Assembly (NCBI RefSeq): GCF_016127575.1
Contig: NZ_CP066018.1
Location: forward strand, 2,070,001 to 2,102,000
Direction: 5' to 3'
DNA: 32,000 nucleotides
From: Cupriavidus necator
GTDB taxonomy: Bacteria > Pseudomonadota > Gammaproteobacteria > Burkholderiales > Burkholderiaceae
The position numbers and the translations under genes are program-made. The notes below the pieces were generated by a model, which saw nothing but the letters and a program-made list of their open reading frames with translations, did no database searches and was not told where the DNA came from. This document shows positions 1 to 16,630 of the stretch, one piece after another. Position 1 is the stretch's first letter, and the number at the start of each line of letters is the position of its first letter.

Positions 1-98
1 GTCCGCCCCCGACCTCACGCCGGGAGGGACGTTCTTTTCGCCGCATTTCGCCAGGGACTCTTTTGTCTCTTATTTCCAGGGTAAAAACAGGAGTTCTC

Positions 99-3032
99 AT
101 GCAAACGGCCCAGAACGAAATCACCACGGGTGGCGCCGCCGCCGGTATTGCACCGACCGCGCAGCAGACCCCCGCCAACGCCGCCAATACGAACTACCCG
201 GATCACAAGATCATTCGACGCAACGGCGCCGTGGTGGCTTTCGAGCCGTCCAAGATCGCCGTTGCCATGACCAAGGCCTTCCTCGCCGTGAACGGCGGGC
301 AGGGCGCCGCGTCCGCGCGTGTGCGCGAGATCGTCGAGCAACTGACTGACAACGTCGTGCGCGCACTGGTGCGCAGCCGCCCCAACGGCGGCGCCATCCA
401 TATCGAAGACGTGCAGGACCACGTGGAACTGGCGCTGATGCGCTCGGGCGAGCATGAAGTGGCCCGCGCCTACGTGCTGTACCGCGAGAAGCGCAAGGAC
501 GAGCGCGCCCAGGCCAACGCCCAGGCCGTGGCCCGCGTGCAGGAAGGCGGCATCTCGGTCAACGTGACCGATGGCGGCGTCACCCACGTGCTGGACATCG
601 CCGCGCTGCATGACCTGATCGACAACGCCTGCAGCGGCCTTGGCAACGCAGTGAGCGCCGAGCCGATCCTGAAGGAAACCCTGAAGAACCTGTACGACGG
701 CGTGCCGATGACGCAGGTGTACGACTCCGCCATCCTGGCCGCGCGTACCCTGATCGAAAAGGACCCGGACTATAGCCAGGTCACCGCCCGTATCCTGCTG
801 CACACGATCCGCAAGGAAATCCTGGGCACCGAAGTGACGCAGGCCGAAATGAGCACGCGTTACGCCGAGTACTTCCCCAAGTTCATCGCCCGCGGCATCG
901 AAGCCGAGCTGCTGGACGAGCAACTGGCCACCTTCGACCTGGCCCGCCTGGGCGCCGCGCTGGACGCCGGCCGCGACTTCCAGTTCAACTACCTGGGCCT
1001 GCAGACCCTGTACGACCGCTACTTCCTGCATATCGATGAAACCCGCATCGAAATGCCGCAGGCCTTCTTCATGCGCGTGGCCATGGGCCTGGCGCTGAAC
1101 GAGAAGGACCGTGAAGCGCGCGCCATCGAGTTCTACCAGCTGCTGTCGTCGTTCGACTTCATGTCGTCCACGCCGACCCTGTTCAACTCCGGCACCCGCC
1201 GCTCGCAGCTGTCGTCGTGCTACCTGACCACCGTCTCCGACGACCTGGAAGGCATCTACGAAGCGCTGAAGGAAAACGCGCTGCTGTCCAAGTTCGCCGG
1301 CGGCCTGGGCAATGACTGGACCAACGTGCGCGCGCTCGGCTCGCACATCAAGGGCACCAACGGCAAGTCGCAAGGCGTGGTCCCGTTCCTGAAGGTGGTG
1401 AACGACACCGCCGTCGCCGTGAACCAGGGCGGCAAGCGCAAGGGCGCCGTCTGCGCCTACCTGGAAACGTGGCACCTGGACATCGAAGAATTCCTGGAAC
1501 TGCGCAAGAACACCGGCGACGACCGCCGCCGCACCCACGACATGAACACGGCCAACTGGATCCCGGACCTGTTCATGAAGCGCGTGATGGAAGGCGGCGA
1601 ATGGACCCTGTTCTCGCCCGCCACCTGCCCGGACCTGCACGACAAGGTCGGCAAGGAATTCGAGAAGGCCTACCTGGGCTACGAAGCCAAGGCCGCCAGC
1701 GGCGAACTGAAGCTGTTCAAGAAGCTGCCGGCGCTGCAACTGTGGCGCAAGATGCTGGGCATGCTGTTCGAGACCGGCCACCCGTGGATCACCTTCAAGG
1801 ATCCGTGCAACATCCGCAGCCCGCAGCAGCACGTGGGCGTGGTGCACAGCTCCAACCTGTGCACGGAAATCACGCTCAACACCAATGAGAGCGAGATCGC
1901 CGTCTGCAACCTGGGCTCGGTCAACCTGGTCGCACACATGGCCAAGCAGGCCGACGGCACCTACGCGCTGGATCACGCCAAGCTGCAGAAGACCGTGCGC
2001 ACTGCCATGCGCATGCTCGACAACGTGATCGACATCAACTACTACGCCGTGGACAAGGCGCGCAATTCCAACCTGCGCCACCGTCCGGTCGGCATGGGCA
2101 TCATGGGCTTCCAGGACTGCCTGCACGTGCTGCGCACGCCGTATTCCAGCGATGCCGCCGTCAAGTTTGCCGATACCTCGATGGAAGCGGTGTGCTACTA
2201 CGCCTACCACGCTTCGACCGAGCTGGCCGAAGAGCGCGGCCGCTACAGCAGCTATGAAGGTTCGCTGTGGGACCGTGGCATCCTGCCGCAAGACTCGCTC
2301 AAGCTGCTGGCCGAAGAGCGCGGCGGCTACCTGGATGTCGACATGTCCGCCACCATGGACTGGGACGCACTGCGCGCCCGCATCAAGCAGCACGGCATGC
2401 GCAACTCGAACTGCATCGCGATCGCGCCGACCGCCACGATCTCGAACATCATCGGCGTGTCCGCCTGCATCGAGCCGACGTTCCAGAACCTGTACGTCAA
2501 GTCCAACCTGTCGGGCGAGTTCACCGTGGTCAATGACTACCTGGTGCGCGACCTGAAGGAACGCGGCCTGTGGGACGAAGTGATGGTTGCCGACCTGAAG
2601 TACTTCGACGGCTCGCTGTCGCGCATCGACCGCATTCCGCAAGACCTGCGCGACATCTACGCCACCGCGTTCGAAGTCGAGCCGACCTGGCTGGTGGAAG
2701 CCGCCAGCCGCCGCCAGAAGTGGATCGACCAGGCCCAGTCGCTGAACATCTACATGGCCGGCGCGTCGGGCAAGAAGCTGGACGACACCTACAAGCTGGC
2801 ATGGGTGCGCGGCCTGAAGACCACGTACTACCTGCGCACGATGGCTGCGACCCACGTGGAGAAGTCCACCGTGTCGCGCGGCTCGCTGAACGCAGTGTCG
2901 TCGGGCAGCGACAGCGGCTCCGCCCTGGACGCAGCCGCCGCATCGGCCCCGGCCATGCCGGAAGCCGAAGGCGCGGTCTGCACGATGCGCCCCGGTGATC
3001 CTGGCTTTGAAGAGTGCGAGGCTTGCCAATAA
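99..3032 (+). CDS. nrdA: Class Ia ribonucleoside-diphosphate reductase, alpha (large) subunit
   Basis: 977-aa product. It has an ATP-cone-like N-terminus (HKIIRRNGAVVAFEPSKIAVAM), active-site stretches LSSCYL and SNLCTEITL, C-terminal LKTTYYLR and a terminal Cys pair (ECEACQ). The track ORF opens at TTG 63, but ATG 99 has AGGAG at 89-93 five nt upstream. Confidence 0.95.
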   Translation: MQTAQNEITTGGAAAGIAPTAQQTPANAANTNYPDHKIIRRNGAVVAFEPSKIAVAMTKAFLAVNGGQGAASARVREIVEQLTDNVVRALVRSRPNGGAIHIEDVQDHVELALMRSGEHEVARAYVLYREKRKDERAQANAQAVARVQEGGISVNVTDGGVTHVLDIAALHDLIDNACSGLGNAVSAEPILKETLKNLYDGVPMTQVYDSAILAARTLIEKDPDYSQVTARILLHTIRKEILGTEVTQAEMSTRYAEYFPKFIARGIEAELLDEQLATFDLARLGAALDAGRDFQFNYLGLQTLYDRYFLHIDETRIEMPQAFFMRVAMGLALNEKDREARAIEFYQLLSSFDFMSSTPTLFNSGTRRSQLSSCYLTTVSDDLEGIYEALKENALLSKFAGGLGNDWTNVRALGSHIKGTNGKSQGVVPFLKVVNDTAVAVNQGGKRKGAVCAYLETWHLDIEEFLELRKNTGDDRRRTHDMNTANWIPDLFMKRVMEGGEWTLFSPATCPDLHDKVGKEFEKAYLGYEAKAASGELKLFKKLPALQLWRKMLGMLFETGHPWITFKDPCNIRSPQQHVGVVHSSNLCTEITLNTNESEIAVCNLGSVNLVAHMAKQADGTYALDHAKLQKTVRTAMRMLDNVIDINYYAVDKARNSNLRHRPVGMGIMGFQDCLHVLRTPYSSDAAVKFADTSMEAVCYYAYHASTELAEERGRYSSYEGSLWDRGILPQDSLKLLAEERGGYLDVDMSATMDWDALRARIKQHGMRNSNCIAIAPTATISNIIGVSACIEPTFQNLYVKSNLSGEFTVVNDYLVRDLKERGLWDEVMVADLKYFDGSLSRIDRIPQDLRDIYATAFEVEPTWLVEAASRRQKWIDQAQSLNIYMAGASGKKLDDTYKLAWVRGLKTTYYLRTMAATHVEKSTVSRGSLNAVSSGSDSGSALDAAAASAPAMPEAEGAVCTMRPGDPGFEECEACQ

Positions 3033-3262: not shown

Positions 3263-3287
3263 CTGCGCTCGCCAAGTGCGAGCGCAG
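3263..3287 (+). promoter_or_regulatory. Perfect 10-bp stem / 5-nt loop hairpin in the intercistronic region just upstream of the nrdB RBS
   Basis: ctgcgctcgc-caagt-gcgagcgcag. No T-tract follows, so it is not a classic terminator. It ends 4 nt before the nrdB GGAGA. Confidence 0.4.
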
Positions 3288-3302
3288 CCTCGGAGAAGAT
3301 CA

Positions 3303-4490
3303 ATGCTGAGCTGGGACGACGACGTTCAAGCCACCCCGCAGGCCGCACCGCAGCCTGCCCTGCAACCCGCTGCTGTTGCCGCCACCGCCGACCAACAAGG
3401 CGTTCTGCCGCCGGCCGCCACGCAGCCCGGCATCCTGGGCGACAACCCCAACGCCGCCGCCGCGCAAAGCAACCGCCGCGTCAACGCCGCCGACAAGCGC
3501 GTGATCAACGGCTCGACCGACGTCAACCAGCTGGTGCCGTTCAAGTACAAGTGGGCGTGGGAAAAATACCTGGCCGGCTGCGCCAACCACTGGATGCCGC
3601 AGGAAATCAACATGTCCCGCGACATCGCCCTGTGGAAAGACCCCAACGGCCTGACCGAAGACGAGCGCCGCATCATCAAGCGCAACCTCGGCTTCTTCGT
3701 CACCGCCGACTCGCTGGCCGCCAACAACATCGTGCTGGGCACCTACCGCCAGATCACCGCGCCGGAATGCCGCCAGTACCTGCTGCGCCAGGCCTTTGAA
3801 GAGGCCATCCACACGCACGCCTACCAGTACATCGTTGAATCGCTGGGCCTGAACGAAGCCGAGATCTTCAACGCGTACCACGAAGTGCAGTCGATCCGCG
3901 ACAAGGACGAGTTCCTGATCCCGTTTATCGACACGCTCACCGACCCGTCGTTCAAGACCGGCACGCCGGAGAACGACCAGAAGCTGCTGAAGTCGCTGAT
4001 CGTGTTCGCCTGCATCATGGAAGGGCTGTTCTTCTATGTGGGCTTCACGCAGATCCTGGCGATGGGGCGGCAGAACAAGATGACTGGGGCTGCGGAGCAG
4101 TATCAGTACATCCTGCGGGATGAGTCGCTGCACTGCAATTTTGGTATCGACCTGATCAATCAGATCAAGCTGGAGAATCCGCATCTTTGGACGGCGGAGT
4201 TTAAGGCTGAGATTACTGAGCTGTTCAAGAAGGCTGTTGACCTGGAGTATCGCTACGCTGAGGACACGATGCCGCGTGGGGTGCTGGGTTTGAATGCGCC
4301 GATGTTCAAGTCTTACCTGCGCTTCATCTGCAATCGTCGGTGCCAGCAGATTGGGTTGGATCAGTTGTTCCCGAATGAGGAGAATCCGTTCCCGTGGATG
4401 AGCGAGATGATCGATCTGAAGAAGGAGCGGAACTTCTTTGAGACGCGCGTTATTGAGTATCAGACGGGTGGGGCGTTGAGCTGGGATTGA
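3303..4490 (+). CDS. nrdB: Class Ia ribonucleoside-diphosphate reductase, beta (small, di-iron/tyrosyl radical) subunit
   Basis: Iron-ligand motifs [13 protein letters not shown] and [10 protein letters not shown], and it immediately follows nrdA. ATG 3303 is preceded by GGAGA (3292-3296); the track ORF opens at GTG 3276. It has an Ala/Pro/Gln-rich N-terminal extension. Confidence 0.95.
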
Positions 4491-4520
4491 GAGTGATGAA
4501 GCCTCATTCTTAAGCGTTGA

Positions 4521-4558
4521 AAGAATGGGAGCCAATAGGCTCCCATTCTTCTTTCGGA
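4521..4558 (+). terminator. Rho-independent terminator of the nrd operon
   Basis: aagaatgggagcc-aata-ggctcccattctt stem-loop followed by ctttcggattt, 30 nt after the nrdB stop. Confidence 0.7.
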
Positions 4559-4989
4559 TTTCCAATTTGATTGCCGCTATTCGAGGAATGACCGAATTGG
4601 TTTCGCGGAAAGCGGGTCCGCGTGAAAATCCAGGAATAGGGCCGGCGCTCGGCGCATGTTGAATAGCATCGAGGACTGTTTGTGTCGTGGCAGGGGGCTG
4701 GCGAGAGCCCTTCTAGATCATTCTGATCTCCGCTAAGAAGATAGAATTCTAGCGTGAGGACGGTTAGCGTCTTTGGGACTTCCGTTGTGCTGGCCTCCTG
4801 CTTTAGCCGAGACGAGCCCAGCCTACCGAAAGGCTGCTTCCGAATTGCTGGTCGTAGGGCTAAGAAGATGAAAGGCGCGCTCTAGTAAACGTTTCATTTC
4901 CGCGGGACGCCGACCAGGAGGCGGACGGAGGCCTTGCCAACGGCAAAGAGTATGATACTTTACTGGACATTGGTTTAAGAGAGATAAAA

Positions 4990-6024
4990 GTGACAGCAGC
5001 CAAGAAGGTAATCCCAAGAAAAAGGACTACGACGCCGGTATCGCGAAGGATTAGCGAGTCGAACTCGAACCGGCTTCGCTTTTCCGCCTCGCTCATTCAG
5101 CAGGGCGATAAGCAGTTCTATAGCGTCACCATGCCCACCGATATCTTGGCGGCGCATTGCTTTGTCACCACTCGACATGAAGACGTACAGAACGGGTTTC
5201 AGCGGGTTCTTGATAAGAAGCGTGCAGAGGATATCGCTCGCTATATCGATAGCGGCGAAGGCACCATCCCTGGCTCGATTATTCTGTCGGCACAAGAAGA
5301 TGCGGACCTCAAAGTGCTCCAAGGTAAGACGCTCGAATTCAGCGCAGTTCCACGCGCATTTCTTGTCCTAGACGGGCAGCATCGCGTTTACGGTTTTCGA
5401 ATGGCAACCACGGCATTCCGAGTGCCTGTTGTGATTTATAGTGGTCTGACTCCGGTTGAGGAGGCCCGACTGTTCATTGACATAAATACAAAGCAACGCC
5501 AGGTGCCGAATGAGCTATTGCTTGACATCAAGCAACTAGCCCAAAGAGAAGACCAAAGGGACACACTGCTGCGGCAAACTTTTGATCTTTTTTCGTCGGA
5601 CTCAGCAAGCGTCATGTTTGGGCTCATGAGCCCTTCCTCCCGCCAGCATAATAAGATCTCGCGGGTAACGTTTAGCCTTGCCATGAAGCCTGCACTCGCA
5701 GTTTTCAACGCGCCTACCCCGCTGAGCGTATTTCAGATCACTAATGCCTATCTTGCAGCATTCAAGGATGTTCTTGATAAGGCAAGGGTTGACGCCTCGC
5801 TTACTGCGCCCACGACATTTAGAGCGGTGTTTGACATTTTTCCTGAAGTGGCCAGAATTTCTGCCGCTCAGCATGGGAAGAACTTCAGCAAACAGAAGTT
5901 CGCTGCAATTATCAACCCCATTGGCGACCTGCTGACTCGTTCCAAATACGAGAAGGCGTCGGCTAGCGTGAAGACTCTCGGCGAACTGTTCAGTAGCTTG
6001 ATCAAGAAGGACTTCAGTATCTGA
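4990..6024 (+). CDS. DGQHR-domain (DndB/DpdB-like, ParB/Srx-fold) protein
   Basis: Literal motif FLVLDGQHRVYGF followed by RLFIDINTKQRQVPNELLLDIK, the layout typical of the DGQHR/ParB-like family. GTG start after gagagataaaa. GC is lower than the flanks. Confidence 0.75.
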   Translation: MTAAKKVIPRKRTTTPVSRRISESNSNRLRFSASLIQQGDKQFYSVTMPTDILAAHCFVTTRHEDVQNGFQRVLDKKRAEDIARYIDSGEGTIPGSIILSAQEDADLKVLQGKTLEFSAVPRAFLVLDGQHRVYGFRMATTAFRVPVVIYSGLTPVEEARLFIDINTKQRQVPNELLLDIKQLAQREDQRDTLLRQTFDLFSSDSASVMFGLMSPSSRQHNKISRVTFSLAMKPALAVFNAPTPLSVFQITNAYLAAFKDVLDKARVDASLTAPTTFRAVFDIFPEVARISAAQHGKNFSKQKFAAIINPIGDLLTRSKYEKASASVKTLGELFSSLIKKDFSI

Positions 6025-6027
6025 GTC

Positions 6028-6960
6028 ATGGCACTGGATGACGCACTAAGACTGAGTTGGATTGGCGGGCTTACGGCAAGCAGCGGTGTCCGATCTTGGA
6101 CTACCGACAAACTATTCTCAAGGCAACGAGTTACTGTCATGCGTGTCGAAGACGCGAAGGTCGCACTGTATGTTGGTAATGCGACTGACAGTGTTAACTA
6201 CTACGCGCATGAAGCCGATCGGTTTGCCGCAGCCGCATTCGAATCAGTGATTACAAAGGCGGTGTGCGGTGAGCTACCGAGATCATACGGGTGGTTGTTG
6301 ATCCAAGCGTACTACGCTGCGTTCTTCGCTACTCACGCGCTCTTCCGGCTCGCCGGCTGGGCCTGTACTCGACTCACGTCAGAGAATCTTCGATTCATAA
6401 ACGACGAGATCAAGACAATCTATGGGGGAGCCCCGCTGGCGGGCGGTCTTTATCTCTTGAAATGTCTGGATGGAGGGCGCCAGCTCACCTGCGAGCCTTT
6501 GGGAGCGTTCTCAGGAGGATCTCACGAAGCGCTGTGGACACTGATGCCCTCTTATTTGGCCCACATCAGGTCTTTAGCCCTTGGCGCCTCGAACGTTGAT
6601 GCAGATGACACTGCGCCGATTGAACGTTTGGAAAGCTTCGTAAAAGCAAAAGGAGGCCCGAACTGGTTCTCCACTGTACGGAACCGTCTTAACTATTCTC
6701 ACGGCTACGGTGCCTGGCACCCATACGTGAAATCGACGTGTGCGCCTGAACAAATAGGCTCGGCTCTTGATGCTTGGCGAGGTGATATCGACGGGAGCGG
6801 CATAGCACAAGGCACTGATGAGTTGATGCACTTTGCTAGAGCTTGCGCTCTCCTGGTAGGTTTCTGCCGCCTCACAACGAGGGATCTCGCAGAGCGAAGT
6901 AAGGCCCGATCCCCATTTCGATGCTCTAGCGCTCGGCTCATCGCCCTTGGTGCAAATTAG
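6028..6960 (+). CDS. Hypothetical protein with HEPN-like signature, coupled to the DGQHR gene
   Basis: The ATG lies 3 nt after the DGQHR stop. Helix pattern LIQAYYAAFFATHALFRLAG ... GGSHEALWTLM ... STVRNRLNYSHG resembles the HEPN layout (aYYa.fha..AlL, sH, R-x4-6-H). The fold assignment is inference only. Confidence 0.55.
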   Translation: MALDDALRLSWIGGLTASSGVRSWTTDKLFSRQRVTVMRVEDAKVALYVGNATDSVNYYAHEADRFAAAAFESVITKAVCGELPRSYGWLLIQAYYAAFFATHALFRLAGWACTRLTSENLRFINDEIKTIYGGAPLAGGLYLLKCLDGGRQLTCEPLGAFSGGSHEALWTLMPSYLAHIRSLALGASNVDADDTAPIERLESFVKAKGGPNWFSTVRNRLNYSHGYGAWHPYVKSTCAPEQIGSALDAWRGDIDGSGIAQGTDELMHFARACALLVGFCRLTTRDLAERSKARSPFRCSSARLIALGAN

Positions 6961-7010
6961 AGGGTAATACAACGACGCGATGCGTACGGTAGTGGAAGGA
7001 AAGGATTAGG

Positions 7011-7063
7011 AAAGGGGGCAGATCTATTTCAAAATCGAGTCGAGGATAGATCTGCCCCCCTTT
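7011..7063. repeat. AGATCT-centred palindromic element, copy 1; also a likely bidirectional terminator between convergent genes
   Basis: aaagggggcagatctat-N18-atagatctgccccccttt (one extra C in the right arm). Confidence 0.8.
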
Positions 7064-7102
7064 CGTCATCAATGCAGTTGGGTGCAGACAAAAGGACCGC
7101 GC

Positions 7103-9604
7103 CTAAGCTCGATCGAATCCCCCCAGGTCTGTCACTTTTATAACCTCTGAAAGCAGTATGCCTTTGGTCATTTTAATATCATGCAAAAGCTGCTGGGATA
7201 AGGCGATGTATTTTTGTAGATCTCTACTGTTTTTGGCGTAATATTTATCAGCGGAATTTAGTTTGTGTCTAGATCGATCAAACAGGTCGATCGATTCTTC
7301 AATAATCTTGATTGCTGCATCGCGATTGTTGATACTTTTTGAGTAGTGGTATCGGCCAATCCCCATTCTAAGTAGGCAAACGGACTCGGATTTTCCCTCT
7401 CGATTTGCCTTGGAGATGAATTTGTCACCATTTTCTATATCATTTTTGTGATATAGGATAATTCCGTGGGTTAGCAATGCATCGGCATTTTTGTCATTAA
7501 GTTCGACTGCCTTCGCTGATGCGATAAATGCTAACTCAAGCTTGTGTGCCTTGTTGAGCAGAAACCATGCGAATCGATCATGGAGCGCCGAATTCAAAGG
7601 GTCATCCTGAATCGCTAGCTCGTAGAATTCTTTGGCTTCTGATATTTTTCCCTTTTCCGATGCAATTTTTGCGGCTTTTGCGTATGGACCCTTAAAGGCT
7701 TCTGCTACGCGATCTTTTTTGTACTCTCGATCAATGGCTTCCCTTTCACGAGCATAGCGGTCCACTTCCGCCGCATAATTCATGATCTCTTCACGATCTG
7801 TCGAGGTCAACTTGGCCAGCTTCTGAGAGAAAAAGCGTTTCGCTAGTTCAACGATCTCGAGTTCATAAGTGCTGCCTTGTTTCGTTTGGTTGGCAAAATA
7901 AGTCTCATCGAGACTTAGGATGAACTCATCATGAGGAATGCCAACCTCTTGGCATGCGTGCCCTATTGAGAACTCGTCTGCTGGGCAAGTAATCGCGACT
8001 AAGACAAGAAAAACGGTTCTTTGGCCTTGGGTCATCCTTAGCCAGGCATCCTCATATAGAAATTCCAGTAGCTGATCATTGGTCTTTCGAAGGATGCTCG
8101 TAAGCGCCTCATCAATACCGACCGCCGTTCTGGCAATGTACCTGACAAGAGCATCAATTAATAAGGGCTTTTGCATTAACTGCGTTCCAGCCTTGCGAAG
8201 CGTGTTATCCCCCGCCTGAAGAATAGGCTTCGCACCATACTCTTTCGCTAATCGCCTCATGAGTGCGGTAGATTCGAAGTCGCTTAGTCTAGCAACTTGA
8301 ATTGGTGTGGCGTTCAAGAGTTCGCGGCGCCGGGAAGTCACTATAACTCTACCGATCTTTCTAACCACCTGGTTAAAGAACTCTTCAAGTTCTTCATTAT
8401 CTGAGGTTGAGGAGGTTAGTGTCTCGGTGTTGTCCAGCACGAGGAGCACATCATCTCTCTTGTACCCTTGTTCTTTCAGTTGCTGCTGAACTTTGTCGAT
8501 AAGGGCTGTGCCTTCTACTTTATACCAATCTTTACCCAATACGTCTTGCAGGCAATATATTAATTCTCTAATGCCATCCCCCATCGCGCCAGAGATTCCG
8601 CGGAAATGGACGATTCCCTGATCTGTCCACTTAGTCATCTTGGCGGTATAGTAGCTAATTATTTCAGGAGGTGCATTTAATTCTATTCTTCCGTCCAGTA
8701 TTTGATTCAAAAATTCGAGGGCAAGGGTGGTTTTTCCGTATCCACCGTCTCCATAGATTAGGCAGGATTTTGACTCCTCAGGTTCATTTATCCAGGCCTT
8801 GAGTTTTTCTAACTCTTTTGATCGCCCCTCAAAAATGGATGTCTGCCTTGACGGTATGTTTTGGAAGAGAGTGTGAGGAGAACCATTGCAGATAACCGTG
8901 CTGCAATTGAACTTTCCTGCCTTGGCGAAGCCTTGCTCAGAAAATACGTTCTCCCTAGGGAGGTCGACCAGAAATTCTGCTGCATTTTCCCAGCATAGTT
9001 GTTGGCCAAGAAGTTTCCAAATGCCTTTCTTGGAGGTGATCTTGGAAATGACTACGGCCTTACTATTGTAGACTAGCGGCGTGCTAATTCGCAGATTTTC
9101 AAAGTGATTAGGTAAAACTAGTTCAGCGCTGCCCTCTGTGTAGACCGGTAGTGAATTGGAAAAGATTGATAATGCCTTCTTTAGGAGGGTTTCGGCCTTC
9201 GGCGTCCAGTCACGAATGTCGCCTTGGTCAGTCACTCCGTGTGCAAGCACCTTGTTTCTGAATTCAACCCATTCGATAATCTCTGATATCAGTGGTGAGC
9301 CGAAATTAGGTGTGGCCTCGTACCATCCTCTTAGAAAATCGGGGTATATAAATGATCTTATTAGAGGGGTGGCTTTGTCCAATAGCTCCCCCGGCAAACC
9401 GTCGGCCGGCTGATGGAAACGGGAGGCCAGGTAGTCGAAATCTGATTGTTCTGAGCTGCTCAAGTTTCGACGGATAATTTCCAAAGAGACTATGGAGCAA
9501 GCTTGCAGTAAAGAGCGTAGTGTGGAGTTAATATGAGTCAGCTTCTCTAGCGAAGATGTCATATTACTGATGACCGATATCTCTCTTGAGTAGATTTCTA
9601 TCAT
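7103..9604 (-). CDS. STAND (NB-ARC-like) P-loop NTPase with C-terminal TPR-like repeats and a HEPN-like N-terminal domain; Avs/NLR-like architecture
   Basis: Walker A LIYGDGGYGKTTLA and Walker B DDVLLVLDNTE. The C-terminal roughly 200 aa are helical-repeat/TPR-like (EAKEFYELAIQDDPLNSALHDRFAWFLL..., AKAVELNDKNADALLTHGIILY). The N-terminal helical domain contains VEFRNKVLAHG (R-x5-H). GC is about 38% in the one 60-nt line I counted (7141-7200). Confidence 0.8.
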   Translation of the reverse strand: MIEIYSREISVISNMTSSLEKLTHINSTLRSLLQACSIVSLEIIRRNLSSSEQSDFDYLASRFHQPADGLPGELLDKATPLIRSFIYPDFLRGWYEATPNFGSPLISEIIEWVEFRNKVLAHGVTDQGDIRDWTPKAETLLKKALSIFSNSLPVYTEGSAELVLPNHFENLRISTPLVYNSKAVVISKITSKKGIWKLLGQQLCWENAAEFLVDLPRENVFSEQGFAKAGKFNCSTVICNGSPHTLFQNIPSRQTSIFEGRSKELEKLKAWINEPEESKSCLIYGDGGYGKTTLALEFLNQILDGRIELNAPPEIISYYTAKMTKWTDQGIVHFRGISGAMGDGIRELIYCLQDVLGKDWYKVEGTALIDKVQQQLKEQGYKRDDVLLVLDNTETLTSSTSDNEELEEFFNQVVRKIGRVIVTSRRRELLNATPIQVARLSDFESTALMRRLAKEYGAKPILQAGDNTLRKAGTQLMQKPLLIDALVRYIARTAVGIDEALTSILRKTNDQLLEFLYEDAWLRMTQGQRTVFLVLVAITCPADEFSIGHACQEVGIPHDEFILSLDETYFANQTKQGSTYELEIVELAKRFFSQKLAKLTSTDREEIMNYAAEVDRYAREREAIDREYKKDRVAEAFKGPYAKAAKIASEKGKISEAKEFYELAIQDDPLNSALHDRFAWFLLNKAHKLELAFIASAKAVELNDKNADALLTHGIILYHKNDIENGDKFISKANREGKSESVCLLRMGIGRYHYSKSINNRDAAIKIIEESIDLFDRSRHKLNSADKYYAKNSRDLQKYIALSQQLLHDIKMTKGILLSEVIKVTDLGGFDRA

Positions 9605-9976
9605 TGGGATTCTATTTTGGATTGTTGTTTAGGGAGTATCCTATTTCGCGATTTTCTAGATGGTATCATCAGGACAACGACTGCGGGTAATCGCCATTGA
9701 GCCGATAGCGGCCGGATCGTCATTGGCTATTGGGCAAGCGCTCTGCATAGAGCGTTCTCTATCCTGCGCAGTTCTCTTTCGAACCCTGCCGAGGCAGTGC
9801 ACTGCTATCTAGTCCACTCGAGCGTGCCTCGATGAACGTCCAAATGGCGGCTATTGGGTCTTCGTCGCGCCATAGCCGGTAACCAATCCGATAGTCCCCT
9901 TTGGCACTACTATGTTGTCTCTGGCAGAGATTGAGGGACCCGCAGCAAAGAATCTACGAATCCCTTCCCTCTGCGG

Positions 9977-10192
9977 CTACTCCGAGGAAATTACGACAAC
10001 CTTGTTCCGTACTTCCACCGTGAGCGCTTGCCCGATCTTGAAGCCTGCCTGTTCCAACCATACCCCACCTAACCGAATCCATGGAACGCATCGCATCCCA
10101 CTATAGCGATTGCCTTCGGTTGCCTTGACCCGGAAATGCCTGTAGCTGGTCGTGAATGTGCGCACGTGCGCAGTGGAAGATATCTTCCGCAT
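9977..10192 (-). CDS. symE: SymE-family (AbrB/SpoVT-fold) type I toxin-like protein
   Basis: VPWIRLGGVWLEQAGFKIGQALTVEVRNKVVVI matches the hallmark of E. coli SymE (IPAITLKGQWLEAAGF..G..V.V). I chose the internal ATG at 10192 because AGGAG lies 7 nt upstream; the track ORF extends to 10231. Confidence 0.7.
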   Translation of the reverse strand: MRKISSTAHVRTFTTSYRHFRVKATEGNRYSGMRCVPWIRLGGVWLEQAGFKIGQALTVEVRNKVVVISSE

Positions 10193-10470
10193 AGCGAACT
10201 CCTGATTCGAAATTTGAATTCGCCCGTGCAAGCAGGGCGGCCGGGCACTTGAACACCGCCCGCAGATCGGCCCGCATGTTTCCCCTTTCGGGTCTTGTAT
10301 CGATGCGCGCTGCCCGGCCTTAGCAGAAAGCTATGGAAGACACGCCACGACTGTCGGACGTGGCAACGCTGCGGGGGGTGTGTTCAGCACCGATAGCTAG
10401 GCTAAGGATTGCGGATACTGCCGCCAATGAGACAACTCTGCATTGCGGTACCGCAACCCATAAGGGCGGA

Positions 10471-10529: not shown

Positions 10530-11170
10530 CACCCTCATGAGACTTCGGCACCTCCATCAAGCTGCACCTCGTCCGACACAGGCCAAAACTTCCCGACCAG
10601 CCTTTCACGCGGAATCGATGCAATCGCAGCCGTACTCAAGCCTTCGCTGTCGACAGAAATGCCCCTCTGCCGCCGACAGGGCAAGGGCGACGCCCTGTGC
10701 GGGGGTCGGAAACGTCGGACGGAACGCCTCGCGATGCGACCAGATCCATTGCGCGACTTCGTCGACGCAACGCTGCGCAAGCGCGGCGTCTCCGGTTGTG
10801 GTGCACACAACCGCCGGGCCGGGGGCCGCGATATCCGCGTAGGGGAAACCGTGGAACCACGAGCAGTCGATCACGCCGGGCTGTGCGGGCGGCCAGCTTC
10901 CGGCAAACGTCGTTGACTTCCGCCGGGATGAGCCCGTCTTGTGTCGTCACGATGTACGGCAGCATCGGCAGGCGTCGCATTGCGGTGACTGGTTTGAGCC
11001 CGCCCCGAATCATCTCAAGCAGCAGCTCGACGGCTTCGACGCCCCGGTCATGGAAGTCGGTATGCGGATACAGCTTGCACGGCAACGTCAGGTCGCAAGC
11101 GGCAGCCAGCTTCTGCAGCCTGCGTTGCAAGCCCGACACCATGTGTCGAGCTTCGGTTGAGGCTTTCTGG
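10530..11170 (-). pseudogene. M81-family (MlrC-like) metallopeptidase remnant, 5'-truncated and frameshifted
   Basis: Family-like segments lie in different minus-strand frames. One is ...KLYPHTDFHDRGVEAVELLLEMIRGGLKPVTAMRRLPMLPYIVTTQ... (frame of 10636..11217). The other is ...DCSWFHGFPYADIAAPGPAVVCTTTGDAALAQRCVDEVAQWIWSHREAF... (frame of 10605..10874). No intact ORF exists. Confidence 0.55.
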
Positions 11171-11980
11171 CTAGTTGCCGGTTGCCAACGCAGGCGCGGC
11201 AGCGGCGTTCGTGTCACTCGATCCCATTTCGGCCAGTCCTACGGTGTAATGACCGCCGGCCTCCCTCTTCAGGGCGAGAAGGTCATAGGTCTTCAGCATG
11301 TCCACCAAGCCCGAATGTCCATAGCTGGCGGGCGAGAAGCTGGGGTCAGTACGCTTGAGATACTGTCCCAGCGCGCCGAGATGCACACGGCCCTCGGAGG
11401 TGTTTGCGGCAAGCAAGCTGATGGCTTCGATCACAAACCTGGGCCGCCGTTTGACTTGAGGCTGCTTTGGCGGAGTTGGCTTCGTCTGGATGGGAGCACC
11501 CCCGACCGCCTCGGTAACCGCTGTGGGGGCCGGTGTCCACTCGAAGAACTGGTCGCTGGCATTGCGCAGCGCTTCGGGCGTCTTTGATTCTCCAACGATG
11601 CAAACCGTCGCGCCACGCTCTCGGAGCTTACGGCAGAGATAGGCAAAATCAGAGTCGCTGGTTACCAGGCAGAACTTGTCAGCCCGGTGGTCGAACATGG
11701 CTTCCAGCGCATCCAGCGCCAGCGCTATGTCGGCGGTGTTCTTTCCCGCCGCGTATTGATACTGAAGGCAAGGCGTAAAAGCCTGCCGAACCAGAGCTTC
11801 TTGCCATGTCTTTCCGAGCGTGCTCTGATTGCCATAGCCGCGCCGGAGCACCACGCGTCCAAACTGGGCCACAACGCGAAGGGCGTAGTCCAGTATCTCC
11901 GGCGTTGTGTTATCGCAGTCGACAAGTACGGCAACGCGAGATTCGGCAACGAGGGGTGGTGCGCTCATCTGTTCGCTCAT
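11171..11980 (-). CDS. NYN-domain (LabA-like PIN-fold) protein with C-terminal OST-HTH/LOTUS-like domain
   Basis: VAVLVDCDNT...GKNTADIALALDA...FCLVTSDSDFAYLCRKLRERGATVCIVG is the NYN layout. The C-terminal part (GRVHLGALGQYLKRTDPSFSPASYGHSGLVDMLKTYDLL) is LOTUS-like. The start is uncertain: ATG 11980 (MSEQM) or upstream up to 12076. Confidence 0.7.
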   Translation of the reverse strand: MSEQMSAPPLVAESRVAVLVDCDNTTPEILDYALRVVAQFGRVVLRRGYGNQSTLGKTWQEALVRQAFTPCLQYQYAAGKNTADIALALDALEAMFDHRADKFCLVTSDSDFAYLCRKLRERGATVCIVGESKTPEALRNASDQFFEWTPAPTAVTEAVGGAPIQTKPTPPKQPQVKRRPRFVIEAISLLAANTSEGRVHLGALGQYLKRTDPSFSPASYGHSGLVDMLKTYDLLALKREAGGHYTVGLAEMGSSDTNAAAAPALATGN

Positions 11981-12216
11981 CGAGTGACGAAGGGTGACGT
12001 CATGATAATGGCAAATCGATTCCCGTCCGTCGAGCGCGTTCCCCGACTGAAGGGCAGCCCGCAAGGGTAGTACCAATTGACGATTGTTGGTCAGTCGCGG
12101 CAGGGCCGGGAATCCGCCAAATGCCGGAGCGGGAACAGGGTCCCGCCCCAGACGGCCTGCCGGCTAACGATTGCCCGATAGCCGGGACGGGGAAAAGAGT
12201 CGATCAAAATGGCGAA

Positions 12217-12552
12217 TTACTGAGAGCTTCCGAACAAACCAATTCCCAGCGGCGGATCAAACGAACCGGCTTCATCGGTCCAGCCGTCGAGGTTGCCGCA
12301 TTTGACCCGGTAGGAAACTAATGCTTTTGTCTCGACGTTGACCAGTCGGCATCGTGTGCCCGGCTGAACGGTTCCCTCGAAAGGCCCGTGCCGTTGCAGA
12401 ACGTCAAGCGGGGCTCTATGCAGCGGAACGGGTGCTACTGCCGTTCGCCCCACAACGTCAATGGTATATCCACCGAACCAAGCGTAAGCGAGGCTGAACG
12501 CAACGGCACATACGCCCCAGACGAACACCTTACCAATTGCCAGACGCGCCAC
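12217..12552 (-). CDS. Small membrane-anchored protein, candidate immunity protein for the upstream effector
   Basis: Proposed GTG start at 12552 (GGAAGG upstream), overlapping the last 23 nt of the effector gene. The N-terminal hydrophobic helix is LAIGKVFVWGVCAVAFSLAYAWFGG, followed by a soluble domain. The immunity role is inferred from position only. Confidence 0.45.
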   Translation of the reverse strand: MARLAIGKVFVWGVCAVAFSLAYAWFGGYTIDVVGRTAVAPVPLHRAPLDVLQRHGPFEGTVQPGTRCRLVNVETKALVSYRVKCGNLDGWTDEAGSFDPPLGIGLFGSSQ

Positions 12553-13099
12553 CTTCGTAACCCTTCCCGTAGAATCTACGTTCGACAAGCCGGTTTGACT
12601 TTTCCAGTGCGGCCAGCAATTCCGCAGGGGATACCGGCATCGGGAGATAGCGGGGATCATGCGCCATGATGCCAATCATCTCCAGCACGTCCGCGACATT
12701 CGAACTACACGAATTATCGAGCACACTATACTCCGCGTCGGCCATTACCCGTCTGTCCAGTTCGACACGGATAATGGTTCTTTCGCGGGGGCTAACCCAT
12801 AAATACAGGCCAACTACATCACGCTTGACCCTTTGCGTATTGCTCTTAAGGTATTCCGCAAGCGGGCCCTTGTAGTACCTTTCATGCGCTCGGCTGTACA
12901 CCGTACCGTCTATGCCTATGGCAACGTGTCCGAAGGCGGATGCAGGGCGTGGCAAGCTGTCGAAGACAAACACCTCAACGTACTCTCGCTTGATATAGAC
13001 GGACTTCGGCTCATCATTGTTGATAGGTGTCGTCGCACGCGTGGTGACCTTTGTCATCCGCTTGTTGTTTGGGGAAATGATCGTATCAGTCATATTCAT
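12530..13099 (-). CDS. Candidate T6SS cargo effector with permuted papain-like (PPPDE/DeSI-like) His...Cys signature
   Basis: ATGA start/stop overlap with the PAAR gene. FGHVAIGIDGTVYS (His) is followed about 70 aa later by YSVLDNSCSSNVADVLEMIG (Cys). That order and spacing match PPPDE-type peptidases. Confidence 0.45.
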   Translation of the reverse strand: MNMTDTIISPNNKRMTKVTTRATTPINNDEPKSVYIKREYVEVFVFDSLPRPASAFGHVAIGIDGTVYSRAHERYYKGPLAEYLKSNTQRVKRDVVGLYLWVSPRERTIIRVELDRRVMADAEYSVLDNSCSSNVADVLEMIGIMAHDPRYLPMPVSPAELLAALEKSNRLVERRFYGKGYEGGASGNW

Positions 13100-13644
13100 C
13101 CTTCCACATAAATTGCAACGTCTTCCGATTGTGTGACGCTCGATAGCAGGTGGGTATGTCCATCGGCGTCTGTCGTGCCGTGTTCGATTTCACCGTTTCC
13201 TCGCCTGATCGCGTAGGCAATACTCGGAACTGGCTCTTGCGAACTCGCGTCGCGAATGACAAAGCGCTCGTCATATGCGAGCACTGAAGCTCTATCTTCG
13301 GATGCGCCGCCATGGATAGCGTTACTCGATGTCTGCGTTTGGTCGTACCCGCTGCGAGAAACCTCAATCGTGAAATCGTTCTGGGTAGGGAATACGAAAG
13401 GCTTGTCTGCACACTGGCAGTTGACGCGGGCGCCACTCACAAGGATTTGTTTGCCGAAGAGATCAAAAGCCGGATAACAATCGTTCACAACCGATCCGCT
13501 GGATTTGCAGGCTGGACACGTCGCAATGTCCCCTTCCACGCCGACGCTCACGCCGTGGTGGATCATGTGGTTTGTATGGGCCATAAGTTGGCCGCCCGTG
13601 CTGGTTGGATCGCCATTCTTTAGTGCGTAGCGAATATCCGGCAT
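13096..13644 (-). CDS. PAAR-domain protein (T6SS spike tip) with C-terminal beta-rich extension
   Basis: MPDIRYALKNGDPTSTGGQLM...GVEGDIATCPACKSSGSVV...GARVNCQCADKP is the PAAR pattern with CxxC / CxC. AAGGAGA lies 5 nt before ATG 13644; the track ORF extends to 13884. The C-terminus (YAIRRGNGEIEHGTTDADGHTHLL...VAIYVEG) is paralogous to the tail of 27054..27608. Confidence 0.8.
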   Translation of the reverse strand: MPDIRYALKNGDPTSTGGQLMAHTNHMIHHGVSVGVEGDIATCPACKSSGSVVNDCYPAFDLFGKQILVSGARVNCQCADKPFVFPTQNDFTIEVSRSGYDQTQTSSNAIHGGASEDRASVLAYDERFVIRDASSQEPVPSIAYAIRRGNGEIEHGTTDADGHTHLLSSVTQSEDVAIYVEG

Positions 13645-13891
13645 TGCCTTCTCCTTGTCATGGACGAAGCTCCATCGATCGTGGCAGATCGCCACCATGG
13701 GATAGAACTGCACGCGGGTTATGGCCGCAATCAGACAAAGCCTAAAAGGCACTGCGAATATTCCCCCTTCGATACCCCAGCGCTGCGCCACCGCCTGCCC
13801 CGGCGTTCGCATCGATCTCAGGGAATGAACAGCCAGGAAGTTCAGCAGTCGCTGCACACGCGGCACAAGGAGAAAGGCACACACAAGGAGA

Positions 13892-14816: not shown

Positions 14817-16535
14817 TCACCCCGCGGCGTCCGCAACGCTCGGAGCAAGCTCTTGAACGCTGCCGTTCGCGACGCGATATACGCGATCTGACGCCTGGAC
14901 CAGCGCATGGCGATGCGTAATCACAATTATCGTTGGTACCCGTTGCCGGACACGTGCGAAGATTCGCGCCTCGCGTTCTGGGTCGAGCGATGACGTGGGC
15001 TCATCCAGAATAATGACCGCTGGGCGGCGCGCGAGCGCACGGCCCAGCGCGACACGCTGGCGTTCCCCTCCTGATAGGGCCCTGCCTTGAATGCCCAGCG
15101 GGCGATCCAGGATATCGCCGTTTCCTTCCGCGGCGATCTCGTCCAGTTCGAGCAAAGCAATGAGTTCGTGCAGTGCGTGGTCTGACGGCGGGTTGTCACA
15201 GCCGTAGGTAAGATTCGCCCTGAGTGAACCGGTGAGGATCATCGGCGCTTGAGGTGCAACAGCGACTTCGCGTGCGATATCGCTGACGGACAGCTTGCTG
15301 ACGTCCGCGCCAAAAAGGCGAACAGTGCCAGCCGCGGGGCGGGCGAGTCCGAGCATCAAGTGGACCAGGCTCGATTTGCCCGCGCCCGATGGCCCGGTGA
15401 GCGCGACAAGCTCGCCCTGCCTGATAGTGATGTTCACGCCCTGCAAAAGCTGCTTCTCGCCTTGTGTGACAACTGCGTGCTCGATGCGGCAGACTTCGTT
15501 GGCAGTTCGGTCGATGTGCACGCTAGATTCGCTGCGCTCGATTGGCAGCTCCAGAAGCCCGAAACTCTCGCGCAGCGCGAGATGATTGCGACGCAAATCG
15601 GACAGTGATCCCGCGAGGGCAGTGAAAGGCATCGCCAGTGTCACGATGTAGCTAACGATCATGACGAAATCGCCCGCGCGGAATGCCGAACGGGTGACGC
15701 CATAGGCTGTCGTCACCGTGAAGAGCGTGAGCAAAAGGCCGGTGCAGATGGCTTGCGCCGCAAGCAGAAGCGCGAGCCGGGTGTTTCCGCGGGTTACTTT
15801 GCCGATATACACATCAAGCGTGCGGTGCAACGCGGAATCTTCTCTCGCGTACGCGTTGTTGAGTTTGATGTCGAGCATGAATCCGAGTTTTTCAACAAGA
15901 TGGCTCGACAGCATGTCGGCACCGCTGAAAATCTCCTCGTGAGCGCTCTTGCTTTTGTCCGCGAGGAACCATGTTGCGGCAAAGAGAAGCAACATGGATA
16001 TGGCAAATCCTAGAGCGAACGCGCGGTAGGTCAGTTGCCAAAGAACGATGCTGGACAGTATCAACTGGAGAACAGTCGGGACTATTGCCCAGAACACCGC
16101 AAACGTGATTGCACTGAAAGCTGCGCGGCTTCGCGCGATGACTGAGACCAGCTTGCCCGGATCTTCTGCAGTCAGGCGGGGGTAGTCAACTCGGATCAGT
16201 CTGGCAAAGATGGCGTTATGGAATGCGGCATCACACCTTGCGAGAACGGCTGCGGAAAGCATGGCTTTCAGCCAATCGAATGCGCGAGCGGTAGTCCAGG
16301 CGAGTCCGTAGGCGGCTGCCAGAAGCACCGGCGAGCCAGTAGCGCTATGCGTGGCGTCTACAGATAGAGCATTGGTTGCCTCACGCAAGAGGTAGGGGAC
16401 TAACGTCGACAATGCCGCGACCAGCGTTACAAATAAAGTTGCTCCGCAGAAGTGGATTGGCAAGGCTGGATATTCTCTGACCGTGATTCGGTAGGCGAAG
16501 ATCCAATCCTTATACAAATCCATAAGAAACCTCAT
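14817..16535 (-). CDS. ABC exporter, fused transmembrane + ATP-binding domains
   Basis: About six hydrophobic segments in the N-terminal half. Walker A GPSGAGKSS, signature LSGGERQRVALGRAL, Walker B VIILDEPTSSLD. I preferred ATG 16535 because GGAGG lies 8 nt upstream; the track ORF starts at 16544. Confidence 0.9.
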   Translation of the reverse strand: MRFLMDLYKDWIFAYRITVREYPALPIHFCGATLFVTLVAALSTLVPYLLREATNALSVDATHSATGSPVLLAAAYGLAWTTARAFDWLKAMLSAAVLARCDAAFHNAIFARLIRVDYPRLTAEDPGKLVSVIARSRAAFSAITFAVFWAIVPTVLQLILSSIVLWQLTYRAFALGFAISMLLLFAATWFLADKSKSAHEEIFSGADMLSSHLVEKLGFMLDIKLNNAYAREDSALHRTLDVYIGKVTRGNTRLALLLAAQAICTGLLLTLFTVTTAYGVTRSAFRAGDFVMIVSYIVTLAMPFTALAGSLSDLRRNHLALRESFGLLELPIERSESSVHIDRTANEVCRIEHAVVTQGEKQLLQGVNITIRQGELVALTGPSGAGKSSLVHLMLGLARPAAGTVRLFGADVSKLSVSDIAREVAVAPQAPMILTGSLRANLTYGCDNPPSDHALHELIALLELDEIAAEGNGDILDRPLGIQGRALSGGERQRVALGRALARRPAVIILDEPTSSLDPEREARIFARVRQRVPTIIVITHRHALVQASDRVYRVANGSVQELAPSVADAAG

Positions 16536-16630
16536 CGTCATCACCTCCAGGCATCAACGTCATATGCGGCCTCCAGGCTCAGAAATTCGCCCCCTTTTGC
16601 GAATTGACTATCCGGGCATCGGGCGCCCTA

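Follow-up and report, generated by a model that had tools for sequence, protein, structure and literature searches.

Downstream of the ribonucleotide reductase genes nrdA (63-3032) and nrdB (3276-4490) in the window analysed here, a stretch of 32,000 nucleotides from the genome of Cupriavidus necator, a spacer of about 500 bp is followed by two genes, designated A and B, which are the subject of this work. A first-pass annotation made from the sequence of the window had described them as a stand-alone, tightly coupled two-gene operon, in which a 344-residue protein with the motifs DGQHR and FIDINTKQRQV is joined to a putative HEPN-like RNase. The arrangement was confirmed, with the 310-residue partner starting 3 nt past the stop codon of A (Table 1). 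The GC content of A (0.51), of B (0.55) and of the adjoining gene for an 833-residue protein (0.45) is low compared with that of nrdAB (0.63) and of the region past 10.4 kb (about 0.61). The pair thus indeed lies in a low-GC island next to a defence-like gene, as had been noticed, the neighbour being a STAND-like nucleoside triphosphatase (NTPase) with TPR repeats.

A and B are considered to be real genes because their homologues reach E-values of about 1e-180 and because the pairing recurs in all 46 loci for which upstream DNA is available. In the public annotation both proteins are shorter (297 and 273 residues, respectively), the segments 4990-5130 of A and 6028-6138 of B being omitted at the 5' end. 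The longer open reading frames (ORFs) are the better models, since conserved residues are found upstream of the public start sites and most of the homologues are long. The label "putative membrane associated protein" that B carries at NCBI is misleading: the hydropathy maximum is 1.23 for the protein of the window and has a median of 1.37 in the family, both below the rule of thumb of 1.6, and a membrane location was consequently rejected. Both proteins are basic, with isoelectric points of 9.0 (A) and 8.6 (B).

Table 1. Position and characteristics of the features in the window (numbering from its first nucleotide; aa, amino acids).
Feature	Position	Strand	Remarks
Gene A	4990-6024	+	GTG start, 344 aa; DGQHR-domain protein
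DGQHR motif of A, aa 128-132	5371-5385	+	NTPase signature of the DGQHR/DUF262 branch of the ParB fold; invariant (37/37)
FIDINTKQRQV motif of A, aa 162-172	5473-5505	+	Second conserved block of the DGQHR domain
A-B spacer, 3 nt (TGA GTC ATG)	6025-6027	+	Between the stop of A and the start of B
Gene B	6028-6960	+	ATG start, 310 aa; large unannotated family; presumed effector or partner enzyme
YYAAFFATHALFR of B, aa 95-107	6310-6348	+	Best-conserved helix of B, bears H103-x3-R107; inside model helix 88-108
GGSHEAL of B, aa 163-169	6514-6534	+	Holds H166, the sole strictly invariant histidine of B
RNRLNYSH of B, aa 218-225	6679-6702	+	Invariant R-N-x3-Y core, then a non-invariant His; the motif contains the end of model helix 213-222
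SymE-family type I toxin ORF	9977-10231	-	Pfam E 7e-13
sRNA-Xcc1	10231-10319	-	Full-length Rfam match, 81 bits against a gathering score of 53; abuts the 5' end of symE
M81 peptidase (DUF1485) fragment	10636-11217	-	
NYN + OST-HTH/LOTUS protein	11171-12076	-	
189-aa ORF	12530-13099	-	Could be a type VI secretion system effector or immunity gene
PAAR-domain protein	13096-13884	-	Stop overlaps the start of the 189-aa ORF

The protein families of A and B

Judged by its sequence, protein A belongs securely to the DGQHR domain family within the ParB/Srx superfamily. It matches the DGQHR domain model TIGR03187 with 171 bits (cutoff 58.85) and the Pfam family DndB (PF14072) with 54 bits, and both motifs, like those quoted for B, are found where the first-pass annotation had placed them. 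The more specific models were not reached: the scores are 13.7 bits for the DndB equivalog TIGR03233 (cutoff 328), 39.3 bits for the DpdB equivalog NF041060 (cutoff 300) and 91 bits for the dnd-associated DGQHR protein (DGQHR_dnd_1; cutoff 450). Only weak matches were obtained in PADLOC, to DpdB (E 7.6e-10) and to DndB (E 7e-4, limited to residues 31-139). The best specific matches of A are the DpdB models.

Residue conservation was evaluated on a set of 37 diverse A-B pairs, and for B also on a family alignment of 78 sequences. The N-terminal two thirds of A is near-invariant and the last 110 residues are poorly conserved. All five residues of the DGQHR motif (D128, G129, Q130, H131 and R132) are invariant in the 37 orthologues, as are F162, I163, D164, I165, N166, Q169 and V172 of the second block; K168 is conserved in 36. 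The AlphaFold2 model of A (predicted local distance difference test score, pLDDT, of 82) consists of a disordered basic N-terminal tail, an alpha/beta domain spanning approximately residues 28-205, presumably the ParB/Srx-like NTPase domain, and a helical C-terminal domain (residues 225-337). A Foldseek search with this model yielded few matches, among which the ParB-like protein PadC (6ryk; probability 0.93, E 0.19) and SspE (6jiv; E 0.43), and none at E<0.001.

In the relatives of A, a DNA-stimulated ATPase controls or assists a partner that acts on DNA (PMC10164549, PMC11662687). The DGQHR-type motif has been described for SspE and DpdB (PMC11662687, PMC10164549), and the arginine of the corresponding DGQQR motif is essential to both ATPase activity and defence in DndI and SspE (PMC11662687). 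ATP hydrolysis by DpdB is needed for the insertion of preQ0 into DNA by DpdA, with which it does not form a stable complex (PMC10164549), and proteins of the DndB type bind ATP as well as GTP (bioRxiv 10.1101/2025.10.10.680097). By analogy, A would be expected to act as a ParB-fold NTPase and to bind DNA. The nicking of DNA, which had been proposed for A by the first-pass annotation, found no support; the characterised relatives of the domain are DNA-stimulated NTPases.

Searches of Pfam, NCBIfam and PADLOC returned no match for protein B at E<=1, and nothing was retrieved from the PDB sequences with three different profiles. The initial search identified 82 close homologues, and an exhaustive profile search extended the family to 944 clusters at 50% identity, 429 of which were found at E<=1e-30. 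Nearly all members are single-domain proteins of about 310-330 residues. The AlphaFold2 model of B has a pLDDT of 93.5 and a predicted TM-score (pTM) of 0.92, and displays a mixed alpha/beta structure with some 12 helices and 5 strands; Foldseek recognised no known fold for it in the PDB and BFVD (best probability 0.10). B thus represents a large family with no recognisable relative in Pfam, NCBIfam, PADLOC or the PDB, possibly with a new fold and a new chemistry. The possibility that B is a paralogue of the C-terminal domain of A (the "HEPN-like" domain of DndB) was considered and rejected (hhalign probability about 1%).

Invariant in all 37 sequences of B are W89, Y95, Y96, F99, F100, R107, H166, W170, R218, N219, Y223, W230 and P232, and near-invariant (35 or 36 of 37) are E72, H103 (35) and N222 (35). 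H166 is also invariant throughout the 78-sequence alignment, and W170, invariant as well, is located just past the GGSHEAL motif.

Coupling, divergence and mobility of the pair

The loci of B homologues were collected from seven metagenomic or genomic contexts, with identities down to 30%, and from a scan of the species genomes in GTDB, which contributed 35 loci. A gene of family PF14072 is positioned immediately upstream of B in all seven of the first contexts. When hidden Markov models (HMMs) for both families were applied, all 46 loci with upstream DNA, the window included, proved to have a gene of the A subfamily as the immediately preceding gene on the same strand. The reverse holds as well: the A of Ralstonia wenshanensis, 91% identical to that of the window, and the A of Pseudomonas aeruginosa are both followed by an intact B. 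The consistent adjacency to DGQHR genes, raised in the first-pass annotation as a matter to be checked, was therefore found in both directions. The B of R. wenshanensis (locus L048, 7033-7965; HMM positions 3-311) was intact and had not been called in the indexed annotation, and counts of B in protein databases therefore underestimate the size of the family.

The 35 GTDB loci were found in Burkholderiales, Pseudomonadales, Xanthomonadales, Nitrosomonas, Acidobacteriota, Gemmatimonas, Cyanobium, Vampirovibrionales, an enterobacterium and a metagenome-assembled genome (MAG) of Methanobacterium. The loci thus span the Proteobacteria, the Acidobacteriota, cyanobacterial groups and the Gemmatimonadota, and their distribution is patchy both across and within phyla. 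The pair in the Methanobacterium MAG is complete and resides on a contig of only 3 kb (L045); it may reflect inter-domain transfer or an artefact of binning.

For the 44 intact pairs, the distances from the stop of A to the start of B lie between -4 and +20 nt, with -4, -1, 2 and 3 as the most common values, and the two genes often overlap in ATGA or TAATG. Such short spacers indicate translational coupling, in line with the tightly coupled operon originally described for the window. The two proteins also diverge together: the pairwise identities of A and B correlate with r = 0.91, and the rate of divergence of B is roughly double that of A (mean identities of 28% and 53%, respectively). Finally, a natural fusion was found in a metagenomic protein of 489 residues (P0333), in which the ParB-like domain of A (HMM positions 38-229) is directly connected to a complete B. 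The variable C-terminal domain of A is missing from this protein, which suggests that this domain normally mediates the contact between A and B.

The flanks of the A-B loci are unrelated to one another. At the DNA level, the window resembles its nearest relative only within 5065-6947, the similarity ceasing at the borders of the two coding regions, and therefore the mobile unit is the bare A-B pair. Among 141 neighbouring ORFs in 31 loci the sole recurrent families were DNA methyltransferases (five) and NotI-family endonucleases (two); the remaining neighbours ranged from integrases and one IS66 transposase to housekeeping genes. A tight four-gene cassette, consisting of an N6/N4 methyltransferase, a NotI-like restriction endonuclease, A and B, is present on the Acinetobacter plasmid pTR3_4, in a Vampirovibrionales MAG and in Nitrosomonas marina, and a version lacking the NotI-like gene in Pseudescherichia (these cassettes occupy L052 427-4303, L023 6946-10930, L027 6730-10754 and L019 7930-10942). 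On pTR3_4, a plasmid of 10 kb, the cassette adjoins BrnT/BrnA. In other loci the pair is accompanied by AbiEi/AbiEii with Fic and a large helicase, by HNH with AAA_21, by a P4-like integrated element, by Fic, or by pyocin genes. Defence-type contexts of the pair are thus recurrent, the methyltransferase-NotI cassettes accounting for 3-5 loci.

In E. coli the pair was found in one of 5,426 complete genomes (strain TW01221; L053 8902-10851). There it is the only cargo, besides one hypothetical ORF of 50 residues, between the genes for gpQ (portal) and gpA (replication endonuclease) of a P2-like prophage, and its GC content is 0.35 versus 0.50-0.56 for the flanks. This P2 locus is the defence hotspot described by Rousset et al. 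2022 (PMC9122126). The same two E. coli accessions are listed in their Table S5A as "DndB + hypothetical", an arrangement that was not curated because of its rarity and was not tested (PMC9122126).

The order of genes in P. aeruginosa (L049-L051, 3490-9991) is a two-component system, nrdA, nrdB, A, B, an ORF of 184 residues, a pyocin S gene with its immunity gene, and toxA; from this order A and B would correspond to PA1154 and PA1153, respectively. In both C. necator and P. aeruginosa the pair is thus situated directly downstream of nrdA-nrdB in the same orientation, an arrangement absent from some 40 other loci. The shared position could be the result of a common insertion hotspot, of chance or of a functional link.

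Neighbouring genes in the window

In agreement with the first-pass annotation, no match to Dnd, Dpd or Ssp models was found among the 26 large ORFs of the window. Likewise, dnd genes are absent from the 141 neighbours in the 31 loci and from the annotated metagenomic loci, and no dndCDE occur in about 45 related loci. Besides the genes for the SymE toxin, the NYN/OST-HTH protein and the PAAR protein (Table 1), the island of the pair contains that for a STAND-TPR NTPase. The latter, a STAND-like P-loop NTPase of 833 residues, is encoded at 7103-9604 on the minus strand and has a Walker A motif (GDGGYGKT) at residue 285 and C-terminal TPR repeats. Its N-terminal domain of 250 residues has no match in Pfam and contains the sequence RNKVLAH (residues 116-122, nt 9239-9259), which is an RN-x4-H motif of the HEPN type. 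This protein may function in defence in the manner of Avs proteins.

An Rfam scan of 4300-10400 gave nothing for A and B, the only match being the sRNA-Xcc1 near symE. The gene at 14820-16544 on the minus strand was considered as a component of a MADS system, given its PADLOC matches to mad3 (6e-32) and mad8 (4e-11). It was rejected as such: the similarity is that of ABC-ATPases in general and the gene encodes an ABC transporter (ABC_membrane and ABC_tran).

Function of the pair

On balance we favour the view that A and B probably form an obligate, horizontally mobile two-gene conflict module, most likely directed against phages (or plasmids), in which A would be the DNA-loading or DNA-reading NTPase and B the effector. 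This reading is based on the strict coupling of the genes, their fusion, their mobility and foreign GC content, the contexts of the P2 hotspot and of the restriction-modification cassettes, the fast evolution and enzyme-like character of B and the behaviour of DGQHR NTPases. As a ParB-fold DGQHR NTPase, A would bind DNA in a nucleotide-dependent manner like DpdB, SspE and DndI and serve as the DNA-sensing or DNA-loading subunit, with its variable helical C-terminal domain as the likely docking surface for B. The basic, soluble alpha/beta protein B would be the catalytic or effector subunit, and its conserved polar residues (E72, H103, R107, H166, R218, N219, N222 and Y223) suggest a metal-independent enzyme that acts on nucleic acid. 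The outcome could be a direct attack on the nucleic acid of the invader or an arrest of growth.

Several observations weigh against this proposal. B has no recognisable catalytic fold, and the term "effector" is for that reason our own deduction; the searched literature yielded no experimental report on any member of the pair, nor a functional study of the pair, also under the names PA1153/PA1154. Scans of 4450-7150 for promoters and terminators gave results no better than those for shuffled sequences. No B was found in 50,697 phage genomes with two divergent queries, and the pair is nearly absent from plasmids (2 of 72,556). Known conflict genes are found in only a minority of the annotated contexts (a raw share of about a third to a half), and many A-B loci have housekeeping genes on their flanks. 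Cargo unrelated to defence, e.g. partition systems and CDT toxin, is likewise present in the P2 hotspot (PMC9122126). Wide conservation at a single fixed locus, as the pair appears to show in P. aeruginosa, is unusual for accessory defence genes; PA1153 has been termed "well-conserved" (PMC4905994). Moreover, A or B is frameshifted or split in L035, L036, L038 and L043, from a Granulosicoccus MAG, an Acidobacteriaceae MAG, Comamonas testosteroni and a Terriglobia MAG, respectively; these may be decaying copies or assembly errors.

The proposed division of labour has parallels. As is presumed for A, the proteins SspE, DndI and GmrSD/BrxU possess a ParB-fold NTPase domain bearing a DGQ(H/Q)R motif, by which DNA is read and a module cleaving nucleic acid is controlled, and they are stand-alone defence units that often reside near restriction-modification or BREX systems (PMC11662687, PMC12839542); as mentioned above, SspE is among the few structural matches of A. 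In these proteins, however, the NTPase is fused to a DUF1524/HNH nuclease, whereas the presumed effector of the A-B pair is encoded separately, belongs to an unrelated and unannotated family and lacks an HNH or DUF1524 motif. In addition, the C-terminal domain of A is poorly conserved, and the pair is not associated with a system for phosphorothioate or other modification. DndB shares with A the family PF14072 and the architecture of a ParB-like N-terminal and a helical C-terminal domain, but A is far below the equivalog cutoff and its loci lack dndCDE.

The combination of a DGQHR-type ATPase with a separately encoded enzyme that acts on DNA (in A-B a presumed one) is also found in DpdA-DpdB. 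The A-B pair differs in that A does not approach the DpdB cutoff, B does not have the fold of a tRNA-guanine transglycosylase (TGT), dpdC-K and preQ0 genes are absent, and only two genes are involved. The cargo of the P2 gpA-gpQ hotspot (old, tin, DUF4238, DprA-PRTase and others) is comparable in that the E. coli copy of A-B occupies exactly the same locus, although A-B is neither among the curated nor among the tested arrangements (PMC9122126). Finally, operons in which HEPN_MAE_28990 is combined with a ParB nuclease and a methylase pair a ParB-fold protein with a small, helical putative RNase, sometimes beside a DNA methylase. A type IV restriction locus of Vibrio, composed of DUF262, DUF262/DndB and HEPN_MAE_28990, is of this kind as well. 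In concept this is the design put forward by the first-pass annotation, and it resembles the methyltransferase-NotI-A-B cassettes. In contrast to these operons, B has no detectable similarity to HEPN_MAE_28990 (hhalign 0.1%) and the histidine of its motif is not conserved. The first-pass annotation knew of no named system with this composition, and none was found in PADLOC (v2.0.0) or the searched literature, where the uncurated line in Table S5A of Rousset et al. is the sole trace of the pair.

The parallel with HEPN_MAE_28990 leads to the nature of B itself. HEPN domains are characterised by an Rx4-6H motif located where helix 3 ends and runs into a loop, by a polar residue after the arginine and by an acidic residue upstream (E-x3-K/R); inserts between helices 2 and 3 are frequent, and the AbiV and AF0298 families use an alternative, upstream histidine (PMC3710099). 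Should B be a true but extremely diverged HEPN RNase of the AbiV/AF0298 type, with H166 and the arginine of the motif as its key residues, then the pair would be an abortive-infection module in which A licenses the cleavage of RNA. The motif RNRLNYSH, an R-x6-H, is present as described by the first-pass annotation, its R218 and the subsequent polar N219 are invariant, and the model helix 213-222 ends within it and is followed by a loop of 17 residues, as in HEPN. H103-x3-R107 is located in the preceding long helix, where HEPN domains have E-x3-K/R, and H166 precedes the motif as does the histidine of the AbiV and AF0298 types. Pairings of ParB-like and HEPN proteins are moreover known (PMC3710099), the Vibrio locus being an example.

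The histidine that would complete the motif is, however, not conserved in the family: position 225 is H in 25 of the 37 sequences (Q in 8, L in 2, F in 1) and L in the natural fusion P0333, where the motif reads RNRLNYRL. PF05168 is the most frequent weak Pfam match of B, always below threshold: it was obtained with 2 of the 78 natural sequences (E 0.035) and with 5 of 35 natural sequences after deletion of the insert (best E 0.016). Its highest score (E 8e-4; 20.0 bits against a gathering threshold of 22) comes from a consensus of B with residues 111-162 removed, an artificial construct that was made with the HEPN hypothesis in mind. None of the Pfam HEPN models reached its threshold with B, and no natural sequence was significant. 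Comparison by hhalign with a HEPN-T profile (three solved structures, 120 homologues) gave a probability of 0.1-0.3%, at or below that of the reversed control, and comparisons with a smaller HEPN-T profile of 3 sequences and with the HEPN_MAE_28990 protein of the Vibrio locus remained at noise level, reversed controls scoring as high. With its approximately 12 helices and beta-sheet, B is also far larger than the HEPN core. The fold comparison on an AlphaFold model of B, suggested by the first-pass annotation as a check, revealed neither a HEPN nor a nuclease structure with Foldseek, HEPN being absent from the 50 best matches in the PDB. This negative is not decisive because Foldseek also performs weakly on the known fold of A, and the variable H225 would still be compatible with a derived HEPN since families with an alternative histidine exist. 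The proposal of a HEPN-like RNase was thus not supported, and we consider it unlikely that B belongs to these RNases.

Somewhat less likely still is a role in DNA modification, in which B would modify or exchange bases with the help of the ATPase A, comparable to DpdA and DpdB, and thereby mark self DNA for an unlinked reader or allow prophages to evade host restriction. DpdB is, as described above, the best specific match of A in the defence libraries, and the dependence of DpdA on the DpdB ATPase, with no stable complex being formed (PMC10164549), offers a precedent. The apparent wide conservation at a fixed locus in P. aeruginosa, the many housekeeping surroundings and the absence of an immunity or antitoxin gene with the pair would also fit, and the many invariant aromatic residues of B would suit the flipping or stacking of bases. 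B does not, however, resemble TGT/DpdA, methyltransferases or any cofactor-binding fold; genes for the synthesis of a precursor and a conserved reader or restriction partner are absent from the vicinity; and the methyltransferase-NotI cassettes already contain a modification enzyme.

A role outside phage defence, with A and B as a toxin-antitoxin (addiction) cassette or as a DndB-like transcriptional regulator and the gene it regulates, appears quite improbable. DndB represses transcription in an ATP-modulated manner (PMC4507180; reference 32 of PMC11662687), and the tight, translationally coupled operon, the location on a 10-kb plasmid beside BrnT/BrnA and the frameshifted copies, which suggest cost or dispensability, could be explained in this way. 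Both proteins are nevertheless large for a toxin-antitoxin pair, A and B are nearly absent from plasmids, the full set of NTPase motifs in A is under strong constraint, and the fusion of the A NTPase to B points to an enzymatic machine formed jointly, not to neutralisation. A housekeeping function connected to ribonucleotide reductase or DNA replication, suggested by the position immediately 3' of nrdA-nrdB in C. necator and P. aeruginosa and by a ribonucleotide reductase-like gene near the pair in a Gemmatimonas MAG, is considered very improbable in view of the lack of nrd genes near the pair in some 40 other loci (other Burkholderiales included), the GC content foreign to the host, the absence of homology beyond the two genes and the patchy distribution across and within phyla.

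For a conflict module composed of A and B, the design of a ParB-fold NTPase with an effector is a known one (SspE, DndI, GmrSD, DpdAB) and the partner family is new. More tentatively, B might have a new enzyme or effector fold, unlike HEPN or known nucleases, which is delivered or switched on at the DNA by a ParB-type, NTP-dependent clamp. The hypothesis of a conflict module is directly testable, because the system is about 2 kb in size, self-contained and available in C. necator H16, P. aeruginosa and a P2-like prophage of E. coli.

A role as DNA-reading switches in immunity is becoming apparent for ParB-fold NTPases (SspE, DndI, GmrSD/BrxU and DpdB), and the A-B module would add a switch tied to a partner that is encoded by a gene of its own and belongs to a large family. 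The combination of a confident model and the lack of likeness to any solved structure makes the B family a possible source of new effector chemistry or of a new fold. If B does have such a new fold and is delivered or switched on at the DNA in this way, the pair would represent an unrecognised and widespread class of two-component immunity that occurs across many phyla and is widely conserved in P. aeruginosa, as the presumed PA1154/PA1153.

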